DNA of 64,000 bases, taken from Escherichia coli (GTDB lineage Bacteria > Pseudomonadota > Gammaproteobacteria > Enterobacterales > Enterobacteriaceae). The notes beneath the pieces were generated by a model that had not been told where the DNA came from, made no database searches, and saw only the letters and a list, made by a program, of their open reading frames with translations. The stretch lies in NCBI RefSeq assembly GCF_003991155.1, contig NZ_CP031294.1; one strand, written 5' to 3'. The position numbers and the translations under genes are program-made. Of this stretch, positions 2,454 through 59,792 are shown piece by piece (position 1 is the first letter of the stretch; every line of letters begins with the position of its first letter).

Positions 2454-3206
2454 TTAATCTTTTAGGTATAAACCTACTGGAGTTCTTGTTTTGCGGGAGA
2501 TGATAAGTACGATAAATTTCTGAACGTTAACTTGCACTTTGTTTGGGAGCCAAGAGCTTAACTCTGCATCAAGCAACAATCCTCTGTTCCACGGCAAAAA
2601 TCCGGTTTCTTTCCCCATCCCGTACTCACCTAACACATCTTCGAACGTTTCTGTTTTGGCATTGTATATACGCACATCGCCGGTTCGCATGAGAGGCCCT
2701 GCCCAGATCTTAGCACCAGGAATGGTTTGTGTATCGTCGCAGACTAAATGCTCATACCAATGAAGAAGAAAGAGATAGGTACGGTGACACAATCCTCGCT
2801 GACGACGCTCTCTGACAGTTTCGACACCAGCTACCTGGTAACATTCGATCTCATTACCGTCTTCAACAAAACTATATTCACGCAGAGCTATCCTACCAGC
2901 GATCGTATTTTTGTTTTCGTCCAGAAGCCCGGACTGGAGCACCTCTTTGATAATCTCTTCTTCAGGGGCATCTTCATCCGCTCGATCTAAGATGAATTCG
3001 CTCAGGTCGCCTTGGTCGCGCGCACCTACACGTTCCATAGAGACATACAGGCAAATGTCATCTTCTGGTTCAATGATTTCAATTTCTGAGATTTTATAGA
3101 GGTAGGCTTCATTGATAAGAAAGCCAAAACGAACAACACGAGTCTCCCCTTTATGAGGAAACTCGCTTAGATCTTTTGAATATGCGCTATCTAGTGTAGG
3201 AGCCAT
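2454..3206 (-). CDS. hypothetical protein
   Basis: 250 aa ORF, no recognised motif. Confidence 0.45.
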   Translation of the reverse strand: MAPTLDSAYSKDLSEFPHKGETRVVRFGFLINEAYLYKISEIEIIEPEDDICLYVSMERVGARDQGDLSEFILDRADEDAPEEEIIKEVLQSGLLDENKNTIAGRIALREYSFVEDGNEIECYQVAGVETVRERRQRGLCHRTYLFLLHWYEHLVCDDTQTIPGAKIWAGPLMRTGDVRIYNAKTETFEDVLGEYGMGKETGFLPWNRGLLLDAELSSWLPNKVQVNVQKFIVLIISRKTRTPVGLYLKD

Positions 3207-3574
3207 TTTGTAGCAGAATCATCAGCCTTAACCGTGCTGACAATGCTACCATGATTGCGTAAGAAGCGGCGAATAGAATGTTCAATAACCTCCGAAAAAG
3301 CCTCGATAAAACGAGACAGCTCAGGGTACTGTTTAGCTGGCTTGACTACAAAACGAACACGACCATTCAGGTAAATTGCTTCAGCTAATGGCTTCACGCT
3401 TGCACCAGCGCGCTCAACATCGTCTTTGAAGGTAACGATGAAGCGTGAGTCTTCCGGTTCAATAGCGTCATTATTGAGCTTACGTACTTCAAGCTTGTGC
3501 TGATTCAGCACATGAGTCTCGATAATACTCGTGCAATCGCGAATAGTTTGTATAGAACGTTTCTCGTTCAGCAT
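3191..3574 (-). CDS. hypothetical protein
   Basis: 127 aa ORF overlapping the downstream gene by 16 nt. Confidence 0.45.
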   Translation of the reverse strand: MLNEKRSIQTIRDCTSIIETHVLNQHKLEVRKLNNDAIEPEDSRFIVTFKDDVERAGASVKPLAEAIYLNGRVRFVVKPAKQYPELSRFIEAFSEVIEHSIRRFLRNHGSIVSTVKADDSATKWLLH

Positions 3575-3798: not shown

Positions 3799-4131
3799 TC
3801 AGTTCAGGTGCCCCCACTCACACAGCCTTTCACCTATCGTATTGTGGATAAGCAACTGTCGCTCCGTTTCCTCAGTCATAAAATCCTCTCTACTCACATA
3901 GATAGGATTTGCAGCATCGCAGAATAGCACGCCTGGAGCCTGCGTCTTAATCACGCACCCATTTATCAAGCAGCTCGCGATGAACACCAGAGGCATCTTT
4001 TTGCCGCACTTCATTAACCGTTTCATTTTTGACATCCACTGTGCTTTGAAGTCGTTTTCTGTCTTCCTGTTTTGCCTTCTCTTCCATTGCTCGTCGCGCC
4101 GCATTTCCGCCCATCGTGTAAGCGCCGACAA
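3799..4131 (-). CDS. candidate o-spanin-like lipoprotein (true start probably internal, near 4026)
   Basis: ORF in alternate frame overlapping the 3' end of the preceding TM protein gene; internal MKRLMKCGKKMPLVFIASC resembles a lipoprotein signal with lipobox. Confidence 0.3.
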   Translation of the reverse strand: MSALTRWAEMRRDEQWKRRQNRKTENDFKAQWMSKMKRLMKCGKKMPLVFIASCLINGCVIKTQAPGVLFCDAANPIYVSREDFMTEETERQLLIHNTIGERLCEWGHLN

Positions 4132-4198
4132 GAACGAAAAGAACGGCAGCCAGCGTAATCAAAGCAACTTTTAGCTTTGTCATCAGGCTGCCTAGCAT
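3947..4198 (-). CDS. candidate i-spanin-like protein (N-terminal TM helix, charged C-terminal part)
   Basis: 83 aa; hydrophobic N-terminus LKVALITLAAVLFVLVGAY followed by charged region; directly downstream of putative endolysin. Confidence 0.35.
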   Translation of the reverse strand: MLGSLMTKLKVALITLAAVLFVLVGAYTMGGNAARRAMEEKAKQEDRKRLQSTVDVKNETVNEVRQKDASGVHRELLDKWVRD

Positions 4199-4199
4199 A

Positions 4200-4919
4200 T
4201 TAGACCATCCCTTTCTGGTGTCTTCTTACCTGCGACCAGGCGATAAATCCAGCCACAACAATAGTGGCAATACCGAAGATGATGCGTACTGTATCCCCGC
4301 TAGAGATATGACCTTGTGCTTTATCCATAGCAGCGGAAACCTGCGGCATAACATCGGCCAGCTGCGCCAGACCAATACCTGCTGTAACAGTTGCGCCAGC
4401 GGTTTCTTTAGTTACAGGAACAGCCTTCACGGTTTTCACCGGCTTAACGACGCCAGCTCGACGCAGACCTTCCTCAATAACTTCTGCCGCATACCAGGTG
4501 TTCAGCGTTTTTAGTGGACCTCGACCATTCTCGTGGCGAATGATTGCCTCAACCAAAGGTCGAAGGATGTCGTAATCATGCAGATCGATGATCATGTCTG
4601 CGGTTACACCAACGGCTTTAGACACCTCATTAATGTAGGCGTCAGTGTTGTTTTCATTCGGCGGTGCCCAACGTTCAATAACTTCACGAATGGTATCGAT
4701 ACTTGAGCCGTCTTTTGCGCGACGTTTGTCGTGGTAGGTAATTAGAGTCACCGCCAGCGCACGAATCCCCCAAACAGGGTCTTTAAACGTGCAAAAGCGC
4801 GGTTCGTCTGGATTCGCAACCAGACCTTGCCACGGTGATCCTTTATCAAGATTACCGGGGTTATTATTACGAATGCCTCTCGGAGTCTTCATCCTTGATC
4901 TCCTGTTATTGCAGTCCAC
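4200..4919 (-). CDS. putative phage peptidoglycan hydrolase / lysis protein with C-terminal hydrophobic anchor
   Basis: 239 aa; GIRNNNPGNL N-terminal motif; C-terminal TM-like IIFGIATIVVAGFIAW; position between holin-like and spanin-like genes. Confidence 0.4.
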   Translation of the reverse strand: MDCNNRRSRMKTPRGIRNNNPGNLDKGSPWQGLVANPDEPRFCTFKDPVWGIRALAVTLITYHDKRRAKDGSSIDTIREVIERWAPPNENNTDAYINEVSKAVGVTADMIIDLHDYDILRPLVEAIIRHENGRGPLKTLNTWYAAEVIEEGLRRAGVVKPVKTVKAVPVTKETAGATVTAGIGLAQLADVMPQVSAAMDKAQGHISSGDTVRIIFGIATIVVAGFIAWSQVRRHQKGMV

Positions 4920-5241
4920 TTTTTACGCCATACGCGGCTAACCCCAAAAGCAGTGCGGTAATAATGAACGACGTTATTTTAGAAACAATGCCGCCAAAGA
5001 ACCCACTTGAGATGGAATCTAACCGGTTAAGGAGTTTGTCCAGATTGGAGTGTTGAATACTATGTTGCGCCGGGGTCATATCACCAAAGTAGGTTTTCAG
5101 CTGATCATTGACCTCCTGGCCAATTTCTTCACGTAGCTCTTTACCTAATTTGCCAACAACCTCCCGAGCAACGATCGCGGCAATACGCTCAACTTGCTCT
5201 GTTGTAACGCCCGCCATCTCGTTCGACATGTTTTCCTCCAT
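4906..5241 (-). CDS. small membrane-anchored protein, holin-like position
   Basis: 111 aa with C-terminal TM segment ITSFIITALLLGLAAYG; first gene of lysis cluster. Confidence 0.3.
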   Translation of the reverse strand: MEENMSNEMAGVTTEQVERIAAIVAREVVGKLGKELREEIGQEVNDQLKTYFGDMTPAQHSIQHSNLDKLLNRLDSISSGFFGGIVSKITSFIITALLLGLAAYGVKSGLQ

Positions 5242-5431
5242 GAAAAGTCAAATCGGGATGGCGGATTTATATCACACTTCTCCTTTCAATTATAGGTATA
5301 TACTTACCTACCTATGCATATACCGTTTAACGGCTGTTCAAATTCGTATCTAGTAACTCACTAATATATCCCTATGATTGCGGCTGTGAGATCGCATTTT
5401 AAACCTCACAGCCATATAAATAATGTCTAAA

Positions 5432-8400
5432 TCAGTTACTTGTTGCCCCAACAGTACCTGCAAATTTCAGCCATTGACCTGACGGACTTCTATTACTACG
5501 GTAATGATAAACGAGGATTGCGTTTGTAACTCCACCGTAGTCAGCTTTATGTGACGTTGTTAAACGAATTGTATAATCACCGTTAGGTAGATTAAAAACT
5601 TCGATTATAGATTCTGCTAATTCTACAGCACCAAATCCCGTTATATTGTTGATACTGCCAGCATTGAATCCCATAGCATCGCCAAAGCCAATCCAATAAC
5701 TTTTGCTAAACGCCCCATTTGATTTTAGGTGGCTAATGAATGTGGACAAACTCATGCCCATATCCCCACCTGAAACAGAGGAAGTTCGCACAGTCATACT
5801 TGGAAGAGCACTGCTCTTCACATAGGAACTTAGAAGGTTTGTTACCTCTGTTTTCGTATAGGCATTAAGGTTAGCCGCAGTCAAAGTAATATCGGCAGAG
5901 CCATCAAACGCCACACCAGCAATTTTCCTTGCTGTCTGCAATTTTGTGGCAGTGGCAGCATTACCAGTAGTGTTCTGATTACCGGTTGTATTCACACCAG
6001 GTATTGAATCCTTAGCGGTATATACCTGCGCCCACGCAGACCATGCCGCATCAGTGGTATCTCTTCGGGAGCGAATGAAAACCGGCGCATGTGCACCGCT
6101 CGTACCACTCCAGCCAATAAGCAACTCGCCCTCACCAGCAGCACTCGCACCTTTCATGTGCAATACGTTGCCATACGTGGTCGGGTAGCTATTGCTGTAC
6201 GCCTCGTACATTTGAATGCCAGCAGTACCTTGAGCAGAACCGCTTAACGCCGTAACTCGGCCACGAGATACCAATGTATTAATGTTGATATCGCCTGAGC
6301 CATCAAACTTAACACCATTGATGTTTCTCGCTGTTTGCAACTTCGTAGCTGTTGAAGCATTACCGTTCAAACTACCATTTACGCCACCAGTCACATTTAG
6401 TCCATTACCAATTGATACAGCACCGCTGGTATTATTAATTGTAATAGGTCGCAAACCGTTCCATGAACCTAATGTGTCTCCTGATGCTGTTAGCATGAAA
6501 TATGTGTTCGATCCATCATTACGGATAAAGAACCCAAAGCTACCGTAAGCAATGCGGAAACCATTTGCATATTTTGAAATGATCTCGCCAGAAGATGTCA
6601 AACCTCCAGATAATGTACCACCGGTAAGAGGTAATGCACCGACATCAGAGGCTGTTGGTTTGTTTTTCGTGTTATATACTCTTCGCCATCCTGGAGAATA
6701 ATCTGTGCCATTAAATACATAGATAAACTCCGCATTAGTGAGAGCACCAGAGACACTCGTCGTTGTGGCCGTTGTTATACGGATCGTATAATTGTTTGAG
6801 CTACTACCGTTATTAAATACCTCTATAACAGCTCCTGCCAATGGAATAACGCCACAACCAGTTTCACTATTTGGTATGGTTGCACTATTGGCATAGGCCC
6901 ACGCACATCGAGCAATCCATGACTTTGTGTTAAATGCTCCATTATTTTGCAATAACGTCACTAACTGTGCTGTTGTTATTGCTCCGCCATTACTTCCTGT
7001 AGTTAACCAACCAGTAGGAGATGCCGGGCAACCTATATTTGCTGGCGACAAGGAAATATTTGCCGAGCCGTCAAACGACACCCCATTAATAGTACGCGCA
7101 GTCTGCAACTTCGTAGCAGTAGCCGCGTTGCCCGTTGTATTCTGATTACCAGTCGTATTAACACCTGGCAAATTAATATTCGCAGTACCATCAAAGCTCA
7201 CGCCGCCGATAGTTCTTGCCGTCTGAAGTTTTGTAGCAGTTGCAGCATTACCAGTGGTGTTCTGATTACCCGTAGTATTTACACCTGGAAGGTTGATATT
7301 TGCAGAACCGTCGAAACCAACTCCACCGATAGATCTTGCCGTCTGCAATTTCGTGGCTGTACTTGCATTACCATTCAATGAACCAGTTAATCCACCTGTA
7401 ACAGACAACGGACCTGAAACTGTTCCTCCGGTTGTTGGCAGTGCTCCAATATCTGATGGTGTAGGTTTCTGATGTGAGCTATACATCGTATAAACAACAC
7501 CATCGGTAACGCTGGAAGGCTTACTCGCTGAATATGTTGGCGAGGTATAAATAGAAACTGTCGCATTTGCAGTACAATCCCAATGGATATTTACACGAGT
7601 CGCATAATTGCCAATCTCAACGTAAATATCATATGTATCGCCGGATGTGTTGATCCAGGCGAAATTCGTTAATCCGACAGCTGTACGCTTCCACAAAGCA
7701 CCTGTAATCCCTTTGGGGTTTCCATTGCCTGCTCGTAGAACCAGTTCTGAAATGCCTGCCTGATGTGGGGAGCCGACGTTGTAACCAGCGCCACCAATCA
7801 ATGCGATGTAAACGATGGAACTCGCTTGTGGCATGGTAACCGTAGCCAGTTTGAACCACCCTGCCCCGCCAGAGAAAGACATCGTTACTGAATTTAAAGT
7901 ACCAATATCTTTCGGCGTTAATGTGATATCCGCAGTCAGTGCTTTACCGTTAACTTTTCGGTTAGATGGCACCCTGCTATTCGCATTGTCATTGGCTGCT
8001 TTAACTGCTTTTGGCGTTGCGGCCAGCGATTCACTGGTGCTGTCGACAGCACTGCTAAGTTTCACAACACCTTTAGTTGTAAGGCTTGCGTCTTCCATCG
8101 CAACTGCACCGGCAATCTCTTCAGCACGATCAGCAGCAGCTTCCGCACGGGTCGCAGCGGATTCAGCAGCAGTTTTGCTCTGAGATGCTGCCGTCGCACT
8201 GCCTGCCGCCTCTGTTGCTTTCGTGGATGCCGTCGTGGCACTGCCCTTCGCTGCTGACGCCTGTCTGGTCGCCTCATCTTTTGAAGCAGACGCAGATGAT
8301 GCCGATGACGCCGCCGAACTGGCGGACGATGCGGCAGCCGTTTTTGAGGATTCTGCGCTGGTTTCCGACGCTTTCGCGTTCGTTTCGGATGTCTTCGCTG

Positions 8401-9460
8401 CGGAAGCAGACCTCGCTGCTGCGCTGGCCTGTTCAGTGGCTTCGCCAGCCTTCGTTGTGGCTGTTGAAGCAGACGATGCGGCACTTTCTGCCGATTTTCC
8501 GGCGGCGGTGGCACTGGCTGAGGCCTGCCCGGCACTTGTTGACGCGGCACTGGCAGACGACGCAGCCGCTGTTTTTGAGCCTGCCGCAGCTGAGGCACTC
8601 TGTGCTGCTGCCGTCTCAGAAGACTTAGCGTTCGTCTCGGACGTTTTTGCCGCCTTCGCGGAATTGCCTGCCGCTGTTGCCGAGGAGGCTGCACTACTGG
8701 CGCTCAAGGATGCGTTCGTTTCTGATGATTTCGCTGCCTCTTTTGAGGCCGCCGCATCCCGGACTGAGGTGGCAGCTTCTGACGCTTTCGTGGTCGCGGT
8801 GGATGCAGAAGTGGCTGCTGATTGTTGTGACGCTGCGGCATTCGTTTCAGATTTTTTCGCAGCAGTTGCACTCGCACTTGCGGCACTTTGTGAGGATGCC
8901 GCAGCGGATGCACTTTGAGACGCTTGAGAGGCTTTTTCTCCAGCGGTATTGGCGCTTTCTGCTGCTGCGGCAGCACTGGCCGCCGCCTCACGAGCTTTGT
9001 CGCCAGCAGCATCAATCGCGTCAGTGTTATTTTTATACCACTCAACGTTTTCGTTGTGCTCGTTGACGATCTGCATTAGCGGCTTAACGGTTACTTCTGT
9101 ACCGTCTTCACGCTCGATTGTCACCTCATCCAGAGCAGTCAACCAACTGCGCATAGACTTGGAATCAGCCGACATACGCGACATTAGTGCTGTAAAGCGC
9201 GCGCTAAACTGTGTTAAGTCGCCTTCATAGGTCGTAATGATTCGGCACGGAACCTCAGACTGAGTTTCGCCGGTATAAGGTTCTGAGAGAACAATATTCG
9301 TATCGCTTATTACGCGCTTGATCTCATACAGCTTATTGTCGGGGCCAATGACGATCATCCCCGGCAACACACCATTAGCTGTTACGTTCCAGGCTGTCCC
9401 TGCCCCAACCAGAGTATTGCTACCCTGTGTAAATGTGATAGTACCTTCCCTGTACCACAT
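5432..9460 (-). CDS. phage tail fibre protein (long, Ser/Ala-rich linker, repeated GNAATATKLQTAR fibre repeats)
   Basis: 1342 aa; low-complexity A/S/T region; three or more tandem ~50-aa repeats containing GNAATATKLQTAR typical of phage fibre proteins; located downstream of J-like gene. Confidence 0.85.
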   Translation of the reverse strand: MWYREGTITFTQGSNTLVGAGTAWNVTANGVLPGMIVIGPDNKLYEIKRVISDTNIVLSEPYTGETQSEVPCRIITTYEGDLTQFSARFTALMSRMSADSKSMRSWLTALDEVTIEREDGTEVTVKPLMQIVNEHNENVEWYKNNTDAIDAAGDKAREAAASAAAAAESANTAGEKASQASQSASAAASSQSAASASATAAKKSETNAAASQQSAATSASTATTKASEAATSVRDAAASKEAAKSSETNASLSASSAASSATAAGNSAKAAKTSETNAKSSETAAAQSASAAAGSKTAAASSASAASTSAGQASASATAAGKSAESAASSASTATTKAGEATEQASAAARSASAAKTSETNAKASETSAESSKTAAASSASSAASSASSASASKDEATRQASAAKGSATTASTKATEAAGSATAASQSKTAAESAATRAEAAADRAEEIAGAVAMEDASLTTKGVVKLSSAVDSTSESLAATPKAVKAANDNANSRVPSNRKVNGKALTADITLTPKDIGTLNSVTMSFSGGAGWFKLATVTMPQASSIVYIALIGGAGYNVGSPHQAGISELVLRAGNGNPKGITGALWKRTAVGLTNFAWINTSGDTYDIYVEIGNYATRVNIHWDCTANATVSIYTSPTYSASKPSSVTDGVVYTMYSSHQKPTPSDIGALPTTGGTVSGPLSVTGGLTGSLNGNASTATKLQTARSIGGVGFDGSANINLPGVNTTGNQNTTGNAATATKLQTARTIGGVSFDGTANINLPGVNTTGNQNTTGNAATATKLQTARTINGVSFDGSANISLSPANIGCPASPTGWLTTGSNGGAITTAQLVTLLQNNGAFNTKSWIARCAWAYANSATIPNSETGCGVIPLAGAVIEVFNNGSSSNNYTIRITTATTTSVSGALTNAEFIYVFNGTDYSPGWRRVYNTKNKPTASDVGALPLTGGTLSGGLTSSGEIISKYANGFRIAYGSFGFFIRNDGSNTYFMLTASGDTLGSWNGLRPITINNTSGAVSIGNGLNVTGGVNGSLNGNASTATKLQTARNINGVKFDGSGDININTLVSRGRVTALSGSAQGTAGIQMYEAYSNSYPTTYGNVLHMKGASAAGEGELLIGWSGTSGAHAPVFIRSRRDTTDAAWSAWAQVYTAKDSIPGVNTTGNQNTTGNAATATKLQTARKIAGVAFDGSADITLTAANLNAYTKTEVTNLLSSYVKSSALPSMTVRTSSVSGGDMGMSLSTFISHLKSNGAFSKSYWIGFGDAMGFNAGSINNITGFGAVELAESIIEVFNLPNGDYTIRLTTSHKADYGGVTNAILVYHYRSNRSPSGQWLKFAGTVGATSN

Positions 9461-31993: not shown

Positions 31994-32025
31994 GATGCAG
32001 GTCTTTAAATAAGCTCCCAGACCGA

Positions 32026-59119: not shown

Positions 59120-59366
59120 ATGTGGCATAAAAGGGGAGCAAGCTAAACGTAAAGGTGCAAACTCTCTATTTCGGTCAACGAAACACAAGGGCCATTTGGC
59201 CCTTGTTATTAACACGTTGCTTTACGGACTAGCGGATAAGCGAAGTAGATCGCCAGACCAATGAGGACGCCATCAGAAATGACAGACATCATCTTTCCCG
59301 TAAAATCCACCAACACCGCCATCACCAGAAGAGCAATGACGATCACAAGCCGGAATCTCTCAAGCA

Positions 59367-59792
59367 TTAGAGATAAGCATCCAGTGACAACTGAAGCGCC
59401 TGGGCGATCTTTTTCAGTGCCTGCTCTTCTTGTTCACCAATGCCATCCTGATCGGCAATATCAAGGCACAGACACAGAACATCGACCGCCTCTGGAGTAC
59501 CCGCAATATCAGACAGCTCACGAATAGCCTGTGCATTAGCAGAACGAGGGGACGCTTCGTAACGAGCACGGATATTGGCGCTCATTTGGGCAATTTCACC
59601 AGCAAACGGAGAAAACGCAGGCAGAGCTGCAATTGTCTTCTCAAGAATGGCAATTTCTTTTGCGTCACATGTGCCGTCGGCATAGGAGATCATGTACGCG
59701 CCCCACACGGTGGCCTCAACCGCATCACGGTTCTCCATTTTTTTGACTTCGATAACTGCTTTACGAGTTTTCTTTTTGAAGAAACCTAACAT
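59367..59792 (-). CDS. TerB-like (tellurite-resistance TerB domain) protein, tentative
   Basis: 141 aa; two D-x-DG-x-x-x-x-E segments (SYADGTCDAKE, IADQDGIGEQEEQA) as in TerB. Confidence 0.45.
   Translation of the reverse strand: MLGFFKKKTRKAVIEVKKMENRDAVEATVWGAYMISYADGTCDAKEIAILEKTIAALPAFSPFAGEIAQMSANIRARYEASPRSANAQAIRELSDIAGTPEAVDVLCLCLDIADQDGIGEQEEQALKKIAQALQLSLDAYL

Follow-up and report, generated by a model that had tools for sequence, protein, structure and literature searches.

The lysis cassette of an SSU5-like phage-plasmid combines a C-terminally anchored endolysin with a predicted tail-anchored protein of the phrog_5093 family

Background

How do endolysins that are anchored in the membrane by their C-terminus reach the cell wall without a holin or the Sec pathway? 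This has been an acknowledged open question since 2019-2022, and it is raised again by four tightly packed genes on the minus strand (3799-5241) of the stretch of Escherichia coli DNA analysed here, a window of 64,000 nucleotides (nt) from contig NZ_CP031294.1 of the RefSeq assembly GCF_003991155.1. The genes encode a protein of 107 amino acids (aa) in the holin position, a 230-aa endolysin and the inner-membrane and outer-membrane members of a spanin pair (i-spanin and o-spanin). A first-pass annotation, made from the sequence alone, had described the region as a lysis cassette with weak assignments and an atypical arrangement, which might use a non-canonical export or lysis logic. In the reading that we prefer, and to which we give an even chance, the endolysin carries in its anchor a holin-like module of its own, and the 107-aa protein serves this module as partner or timer.

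Results

Identity and origin of the cassette

The window is part of an SSU5-like phage-plasmid. Its first 12 kb are 100% identical to plasmid P2 of E. coli isolate 162 (NZ_OW849379.1, IncFIB, 110,667 bp, positions 32001 onward), and the region has matches in 949 plasmid records, whose hosts include Escherichia, Klebsiella, Enterobacter, Yersinia and Salmonella. The DNA of the cassette is 94.5% identical to that of Escherichia phage Cyrano and 83% identical to that of Salmonella phage SSU5. In both phages the same four genes, in the same order and of the same sizes, are labelled holin, endolysin, Rz and Rz1 (SSU5_026-030 and CYRAN_22-25), these roles being annotations alone; SSU5 differs in that three additional moron genes separate its tail-fibre gene from the cassette. 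RefSeq names the genes hypothetical, membrane protein and hypothetical, and the o-spanin gene is missing from its annotation and from the PGAP table. Chance can be excluded because of the matches to the PHROG families of Rz (4e-25), Rz1 (2.7e-25), endolysins (9e-89) and phrog_5093 (2e-68), and because the ratio of nonsynonymous to synonymous polymorphism (pN/pS) is 0.06-0.08 for the first two genes. The locus is a genuine late lysis cassette of an SSU5-like phage-plasmid, and in calling it a lysis cassette the first-pass annotation was right.

The endolysin

The endolysin gene starts at ATG 4892 behind an AGGAG site, in agreement with the annotations of PGAP, SSU5 and Cyrano. The upstream GTG 4919 (open reading frame (ORF) 4200-4919, 239 aa, containing GIRNNNPGNL) was rejected as a start. 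With the start at ATG 4892, the gene does not overlap the gene of the 107-aa protein but is separated from it by 13 nt, with AGGAG inside, and this spacing is kept in nearly all of about 70 related loci.

Residues 1-151 align to the Enc34 endolysin's catalytic domain (PDB 7Q47, phmmer E=1.5e-54; we confirmed 7Q47 as the Enc34 structure, that of LysT84 being 7RUM), and the AlphaFold2 (AF2) model has a predicted local distance difference test score (pLDDT) above 90 for residues 1-150. The residues Trp79, Tyr95 and Glu131 that have been identified as catalytic in Enc34 (PMC8943055) correspond to W75, Y86 and E121 and are near-invariant across 39 homologues. The identity to the endolysins of chi-like phages is about 55% over the full length. 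Scans of all four cassette proteins against Pfam and NCBIfam gave no significant match, so that the comparison with lysozyme or transglycosylase families suggested in the first-pass annotation has no answer to give and for the hydrolase it is the PDB and PHROG matches that provide the identification. The earlier call of a 239-aa cell-wall hydrolase withstood the profile search as far as the enzyme is concerned, with the Enc34 domain match and the retained catalytic residues, and had to be corrected in its length.

Judged by homology, the 230-aa protein is a muralytic enzyme of the Enc34/M4Lys type. With M4Lys of Salmonella phage BSPM4 and ORF39 of Enc34 it has in common the catalytic domain with its Trp, Tyr and Glu, the linker motifs, a C-terminal transmembrane domain (TMD) and a basic tail, and it has no N-terminal signal or signal-anchor-release (SAR) segment. 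M4Lys cleaves purified murein with N-acetylglucosaminidase specificity (PMC7143992), and this is most likely also the specificity of the enzyme studied here.

The catalytic domain was found in 793 phage records. In Mu-like Pseudomonas phages it stands alone as an endolysin, and in T7-like phages it is built into internal virion or tail proteins. The C-terminally anchored version occurs in chi-like phages and SSU5-like elements, and at least 120 clusters (90% identity) span the whole anchored endolysin. PHROG places its family 873 ('endolysin') in the category 'head and packaging', since large virion proteins can contain the same domain (e.g. PDB 9vvp Gp29, E=6e-22).

The C-terminal region of the endolysin

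All hydrophobic segments of the endolysin are C-terminal. The N-terminus (MKTPRGIRNNNPGNLDKGSPW) is hydrophilic and lacks the weakly hydrophobic SAR domain, and membership in the SAR endolysins was rejected for this reason. As stated in the first-pass annotation, the protein ends in a hydrophobic segment, which hydropathy places at residues about 200-222 and which AF2 models as a helix (residues 200-226). The region ahead of this TMD contains several residues that are invariant across the 39 homologues and is as constrained as the enzyme domain (pN/pS 0.07); by these measures, it is more than a passive linker.

Across the 39 homologues the charges follow a regular pattern. A Lys-rich basic flank (net +2.1) is followed by a weakly hydrophobic stretch of 19 residues, here called helix A, with no Lys or Arg and 61% Gly, Ala, Ser or Thr, then by an acidic loop (net -1.4), the strong TMD and a basic tail (net +2.3). 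According to the positive-inside rule, we infer from this pattern that the region forms a hairpin with both ends in the cytoplasm (N-in/C-in). The same topology has been predicted for the homologue of phage Siskin (PMC6498227).

A comparison with class II holins illustrates the layout. Class II holins and pinholins, such as S68 of phage 21, consist of a SAR-like TMD1 and a TMD2 in N-in/C-in topology. The C-terminal 80 residues of the endolysin match the S68 layout, with the basic flank, the weak helix rich in Gly, Ala, Ser and Thr, the acidic loop, the strong TMD and the basic tail. However, the module is fused to an enzyme here, no sequence similarity to any holin family was found, and insertion of helix A is unsupported by AF2. 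Helix A is also less hydrophobic here than in some homologues. When the C-terminal 82 aa were compared with holin families and with the small two-TMD proteins of other cassettes, only their own family was matched.

That export or lysis may follow a non-canonical logic is backed by experiments on homologues. Without a holin, M4Lys by itself brings about lysis of E. coli in 20-60 min, and inhibition of Sec by azide does not block this lysis. M4Lys that lacks its last 13 residues no longer lyses cells, its TMD on its own has a bacteriostatic effect, and the 'lysis protein B' encoded upstream has no lytic activity and can be dispensed with (PMC7143992). For Enc34 ORF39, the full-length protein is toxic whereas a truncated form is not; its authors consider the route to the periplasm unknown and know of no mechanism that exports an N-terminal domain via a C-terminal signal (PMC8943055). 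Similar behaviour is reported for the GH24 endolysin LysAP of phage AP1, which likewise has a C-terminal TMD (PMC8879335). By analogy with M4Lys and, in part, Enc34, lysis by the endolysin of the window would depend on its TMD and would need neither a holin nor Sec.

The 107-aa protein in the holin position

The first gene starts at ATG 5229 behind GGAGG. A start at ATG 5241 (ORF 4906-5241) was rejected, since this codon is mutated or out of frame in five related loci and is part of the ribosome-binding context; with it, a dual-start holin/antiholin motif (ATG 5241/5229) was dismissed as well. The product belongs to phrog_5093, which PHROG lists as 'unknown function'. An exhaustive search of 1.8 billion representative proteins yielded 57 relatives of 100-150 aa, 49 of which form the family alignment, and among the 50,697 GenBank phages the family is limited to 12 SSU5-like records. 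Neither the 107-aa protein nor any of the 49 relatives matches a holin family in Pfam, NCBIfam or PHROG, and a fold search of the model against viral structures as well as a profile search of the PDB gave no meaningful match. The first-pass verdict of weak assignments holds for this protein and not for the endolysin and the spanins.

The family motif is YFGDMxPxxHxxQHxR, with G49, H56 and H60 invariant and D71 present in at least 90% of the 49 members. In line with the first-pass description of a protein with only a C-terminal transmembrane segment, there is one hydrophobic stretch. The C-terminal TMD is found in 47 of the 49 members with a median tail of five residues, and none of them has a hydrophobic peak in the first 60 residues. 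Since only six residues follow the TMD, the 107-aa protein is expected to be tail-anchored with its N-domain in the cytoplasm. This domain is acidic (net charge -4; family median -3). The AF2 model (pLDDT 91.6) contains two helices (residues 10-48 and 53-103) that are joined at the invariant Gly, and the second of them runs from the His pair directly into the membrane segment. The pN/pS is 0.06 in the N-domain and the TMD alike, which indicates strong purifying selection.

As a small membrane protein with one TMD, encoded 13 nt upstream of an endolysin gene, the 107-aa protein resembles a holin. Holins of class I have three TMDs and those of class II have two; class III has an N-proximal TMD and a large periplasmic C-domain, and the proposed class IV an N-terminal TMD with N-out/C-in topology. 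A single TMD at the extreme C-terminus fits none of the classes I-IV. The protein is probably not a sufficient holin alone; that it acts as the holin is doubtful because distant homologues occur together with separate holin-like proteins. Homology to the 'class IV holin' of chi-like phages was rejected too (BLASTP E=17, hhalign probability 2%). This chi-like protein, with its N-terminal TMD and coiled coil (Salmonella phage KFS-SE1 gp36, 2150-2488 of the locus L003), is labelled 'Rz-like spanin' by PHROG 7686 and RefSeq, which is probably a mis-annotation.

The Mu gp25 releasin, the Siskin 'class IV holin' and the 107-aa protein are alike in size (about 100-135 aa), in having one TMD and in an anionic helical cytoplasmic domain of about 70-80 aa (PMC9239132, PMC6498227). 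All three families are encoded in lysis cassettes, each alongside several endolysin classes. However, the TMD of Mu gp25 and of the Siskin protein is N-terminal (N-out/C-in), whereas that of the 107-aa protein lies at the extreme C-terminus (N-in). Membership in DUF2730, the family of Mu gp25, was rejected because none of the 49 members matches it and the TMD is C-terminal. The resemblance to a releasin, a membrane-tethered anionic cytoplasmic domain encoded in a lysis cassette, is a functional one only.

The endolysin of Escherichia phage CMS-2020a (CP054387.1, 35089-36115) is 100% identical to that of the window while its adjoining 107-aa protein is 84% identical. This suggests, from the sequences, a recombination breakpoint between the two genes, and the pair would therefore not be strictly co-inherited.

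Gene context of phrog_5093 homologues

We surveyed 11 contexts of phrog_5093 homologues, among them contigs from metagenomes and IMG/VR (L005, L097, L098, L138) as well as the window/SSU5; the short contigs L091 and L096 were ambiguous. In 11 of 11 contexts the homologue heads the lysis cassette, directly upstream of an endolysin or holin gene, and four endolysin types lie beside it. By this context, the 107-aa family is a lysis-cassette component whatever the endolysin type. A PHA02564 endolysin with its own C-terminal anchor is encoded in the window/SSU5, L094 and L092, and no separate multi-TMD protein occurs in these cassettes. The soluble endolysin of the Peptidase_M15_3 type (L005, L008, L097, L098) is accompanied by a separate protein of 73-91 aa with two TMDs, followed by the spanins, and the GH108 endolysin (L099) by a separate 106-aa membrane protein. 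Where the endolysin is of the SLT type, with an N-terminal signal or SAR segment, a Pfam Holin_2-3 protein (L010, L093) or a protein with three TMDs (L138) is encoded between the homologue and the endolysin. Taken together, a separate small multi-TMD protein is found in all eight contexts without a C-terminally anchored endolysin versus none of the three with one (Fisher exact p about 0.006, contexts being treated as independent). The anchored endolysin appears, on these gene contents, to replace a separate holin.

A search for further contexts with a degenerate DNA pattern gave one additional locus, and a search for related loci with the family alignment gave SSU5-like loci only. No match in cultured phages was obtained by tblastn with one of the two-TMD partner proteins.

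The GC-rich contigs L005, L097, L098 and L138, which carry distant homologues of the 107-aa protein, share a radical-SAM gene upstream and a conserved gene of about 398 aa downstream of the lysis cassette. They may be distant SSU5-like phage-plasmids of other hosts with exchanged endolysin and holin modules; the contig of L138 has 109 kb. L094 (3501-6179; GCA_001676155.1, LZEW01000035.1) represents a related phage-plasmid lineage with a homologue of the 107-aa protein that is 56% identical. Its layout is separated and reordered, with three unrelated genes between the endolysin and the spanins and a lipoprotein gene ahead of the i-spanin homologue.

The spanins

The i-spanin gene begins 1 nt past the endolysin stop codon. 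Its product matches the 'Rz-like spanin' family and has a TMD at residues about 8-27. The o-spanin gene starts at ATG 4026, 80 nt before the Rz stop codon (3947), and extends 148 nt past this stop to 3799, which agrees with the first-pass statement that the pair overlaps rather than being embedded. This is kept in nearly all of the approximately 70 related loci (start 80-89 nt before, end 136-163 nt after the Rz stop), and the overlap encodes the o-spanin signal peptide only. The lipobox Cys lies at 3957-3955 (LING|C) with Val and not Asp at +2. The o-spanin ORF is intact in 45 DNA variants; since all 45 keep GC|VIK whereas 10 of them lack the first Cys (FIASC), the second Cys is expected to be the lipidated one.

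By sequence, the last two genes are a two-component spanin of the Chi family in overlapped layout. The P2 LysB/LysC-type overlapped spanins are alike in the +1-frame start inside the i-spanin gene, the extension past its stop, the N-terminal TMD of the i-spanin and the lipobox of the o-spanin, which has no Asp at +2. Compared to these, the i-spanin of the window is short (83 aa) and the overlap is limited to the signal peptide. Overlapped genes are the most frequent spanin architecture (228 of 528 systems), and SSU5 has been placed in the Chi family (Kongari et al., PMC6139136). The spanin part of the cassette is therefore ordinary, and with the canonical order of small membrane protein, endolysin, i-spanin and o-spanin, the arrangement is not atypical as had been assumed at first. 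The Rz1 of Cyrano, called with 39 aa, no overlap with Rz, no signal peptide and no lipobox, is probably mis-started.

Features and neighbours of the cassette

The coordinates of the features are listed in Table 1.

Table 1 Features of the lysis cassette and its upstream gap (positions in the 64,000-nt window)
Feature	Position	Strand	Basis
107-aa tail-anchored membrane protein (predicted), phrog_5093 family	4906..5229	-	GGAGG Shine-Dalgarno site, ATG 5229, PGAP CDS
Conserved core motif YFGDMTPAQHSIQH of the 107-aa protein: G49 at helix-helix turn, H56 (5064-5062), H60 (5052-5050)	5050..5085	-	49-member alignment
C-terminal transmembrane helix of the 107-aa protein, residues about 77-101	4927..5001	-	Hydropathy; 6-residue tail VKSGLQ after it
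230-aa endolysin, Enc34/M4Lys type (by homology)	4200..4892	-	PDB 7Q47, PHROG 873, PGAP name 'membrane protein'
Catalytic domain of the endolysin, residues 1-150, with W75, Y86, E121	4443..4892	-	Residue mapping to Enc34; AF2
Lys-rich linker, helix A (residues 164-182, SAR-like) and acidic loop of the endolysin	4296..4442	-	Charge pattern of 39 homologues, pN/pS
C-terminal transmembrane helix of the endolysin (residues about 200-222) and basic tail RRHQKGMV	4203..4295	-	Hydropathy, AF2
i-spanin, 83 aa	3947..4198	-	PHROG 1026, N-terminal TMD
o-spanin lipoprotein precursor, 75 aa, +1 frame	3799..4026	-	PHROG 1275, lipobox
9-bp perfect inverted repeat GGCTGTGAG / 14-nt loop / CTCACAGCC	5382..5413	-	Read from sequence

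The upstream neighbour of the cassette is a tail-fibre gene of 1342 aa (5432-9460), the start of which PGAP places at 9016 and not at 9460; the Cyrano label is homologue of P1 S. The ORF contains a long low-complexity stretch rich in Ala, Ser and Thr (roughly 8000-9000, GC content 0.53) and at least six copies of the repeat GN(A)STATKLQTAR.I.GV.FDGS.NI. The inverted repeat is located 19 nt past the tail-fibre stop, inside the 202-nt gap between this gene and the cassette, and has no U-tract. It may be an RNA hairpin, and it might act in RNA processing or stability or as an attenuator in front of the lysis genes. A scan of the cassette for promoters and terminators gave nothing over shuffle expectation and did not call the inverted repeat.

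Downstream of the cassette there are two genes without known function, followed by the partition gene for ParA. The slot between the spanins and ParA (2454-3574) is variable; it holds phrog_2594 (127 aa) and phrog_3307 (250 aa) here, both functionally unassigned, a KacT acetyltransferase toxin-antitoxin pair in Cyrano and two other hypothetical genes in SSU5. A 119-aa ORF (1250-1609; phrog_5111, listed with unknown function) directly 3' of ParA is labelled 'RelE/ParE putative toxin' in Cyrano; its position rather points to a centromere-binding protein that would be the partner of ParA in partition. Elsewhere in the window, just one small multi-TMD protein has a family match, a membrane protein of 52 aa with two helices (59209-59367; PHROG 'TciB-like inhibition of cell division or resistance to colicin', E=3e-21).

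Discussion

In the mechanism that we propose, the endolysin would be made without a signal sequence and would accumulate at the cytoplasmic face of the inner membrane, tethered via its C-terminal region. The C-terminal hairpin would then supply the membrane lesion, the enzyme would reach the murein, and a separate canonical holin would not be needed. The 107-aa protein would act on holin-like transmembrane modules and set or trigger the timing, as a co-holin, an antiholin or a releasin-like protein, rather than being a stand-alone canonical holin. After breakdown of the murein, the spanins would fuse the inner and the outer membranes.

Several points weigh against this reading. The roles of the SSU5-like cassette and of phrog_5093 are deduced from sequence and from homologues. 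In the AF2 model, helix A does not appear as a membrane helix (residues 155-199 have a pLDDT below 50), Pro183 lies just beyond its C-terminal end, and the weakly hydrophobic helix A of the window falls under the TMD hydropathy threshold used. For M4Lys, topology predictors gave N-out and not N-in (PMC7143992). The context survey is small, and since several of its contigs have flanking genes in common (radical SAM, 398-aa protein), its lineages are independent only in part. It is mainly their architecture that makes the extra multi-TMD proteins holin-like; Pfam holin matches (Holin_2-3) were obtained for those of L010 and L093 alone, weakly in the case of L093, and that of L008 matches a PHROG holin family with E=0.007. 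That no further holin-family gene turned up speaks for the reading, but the search took in only 58% of the plasmid, with the 64-kb window, and the first 50 kb of SSU5. Finally, a holin gene classically comes first in its cassette. The order in P2 is holin, endolysin, antiholin, and on this model the surveyed contexts allow the opposite reading.

The main alternative is that the 107-aa protein is the true and sole holin, of a new tail-anchored topology (N-in, C-out), and that the TMD of the endolysin merely tethers the enzyme until the holin fires. Its gene comes first and directly ahead of the endolysin gene, as in lambda, P22 and P2, a multi-TMD gene behind the endolysin gene could encode an antiholin as in the P2 order, and SSU5 and Cyrano label the protein 'putative holin' or 'Holin'. 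Apart from the spanins, the cassette encodes no other dedicated small membrane protein; conservation extends to the TMD of the 107-aa protein, where the closer homologues keep a Gly at position 96, and the four associated endolysin types are what is expected for a generic hole-former. On the other hand, the searches of Pfam, NCBIfam and PHROG found no holin family for it, and an invariant His in the soluble domain is not a holin feature. In addition, phrog_5093 occurs together with a Holin_2-3 protein between it and a SAR or signal endolysin (L010, L093) and with a three-TMD protein (L138), and in the chi-like system the product of the corresponding gene does not lyse cells and is dispensable for lysis by M4Lys (PMC7143992). 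A sole-holin role of the 107-aa protein is therefore a tentative explanation that we consider rather unlikely.

Still less probable, in our view, is an export of the catalytic domain, which would wait inactive in the periplasm on an N-out/C-in anchor and be freed by depolarisation, as a mirror image of SAR endolysins with the 107-aa protein as pinholin or releasin. A periplasmic N-terminus as predicted for M4Lys and a C-in orientation as favoured by the basic tail behind the TMD would fit (PMC7143992), the Enc34 authors have proposed a SAR-like tethering and release (PMC8943055), and LysAP reportedly needs its TMD for localisation (PMC8879335). Mu gp25 sets a precedent for a membrane-tethered cytoplasmic protein that frees anchored endolysins (PMC9239132). 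However, the endolysin has no N-terminal signal and begins with MKTPRGIRNNNPGN, the Lys-rich flank before the hydrophobic region (net +2.1) is cytoplasmic by the positive-inside rule, and M4Lys lysis is insensitive to azide (PMC7143992). It is highly improbable that the 107-aa protein is unrelated to lysis, e.g. a moron, an exclusion protein or a tail-fibre accessory that merely sits between tail-fibre and lysis genes. Although phrog_5093 carries no function in PHROG, and the slot after the tail-fibre gene of SSU5 holds Cor and membrane-protein morons, the homologues of the 11 surveyed contexts, which have unrelated types of endolysin and differ in their upstream genes, all lie immediately before an endolysin or holin gene. 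The conserved 13-nt spacing to the endolysin gene and the strong purifying selection also argue against such a bystander.

The reading of the anchor as a built-in holin-like module can be extended. SSU5- and chi-type endolysins might be natural holin-endolysin fusions in which the C-terminal hairpin makes the membrane lesion, and phrog_5093 might be an unrecognised class of tail-anchored lysis proteins. These would either add a fifth topology to the holins or act as a general timer, their cytoplasmic two-helix domain gating holin-like transmembrane modules via the G...HxxxH site, possibly by sensing metal or pH, and they would have stayed in first position while the endolysin and holin modules that follow were swapped. 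We regard this extension as speculative and doubt that it holds in full.

The chi-like phages (Casjensviridae) offer the closest comparison. There, the same endolysin occupies the same slot between a gene for a small single-TMD protein and overlapped Chi-family spanins. However, these phages are siphoviruses of about 60 kb whereas the element studied here is an SSU5-like phage-plasmid of about 110 kb, and their upstream protein belongs to phrog_7686 with an N-terminal TMD whereas that of the window belongs to the unrelated phrog_5093 with a C-terminal TMD.

Conclusions

The endolysin and the spanins of the cassette are further members of known, published kinds, and the cassette is already annotated in SSU5 and Cyrano. 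What is new is the combination with an uncharacterised partner family of mirror topology, phrog_5093. The RefSeq annotation can be corrected by naming the four lysis genes and adding the o-spanin. Phage-plasmids of the SSU5 type occur widely in E. coli, Klebsiella, Salmonella and Cronobacter, and together with the chi-like phages they provide a natural comparison, in which the same endolysin and spanins are combined with unrelated upstream partners of mirror-image topology, while the partner family of the phage-plasmids is also found beside ordinary endolysins and separate holin-like proteins. This comparison makes two ideas directly testable, namely that the anchor of the endolysin is a built-in holin and that phrog_5093 represents a new tail-anchored class of lysis regulators or holins.

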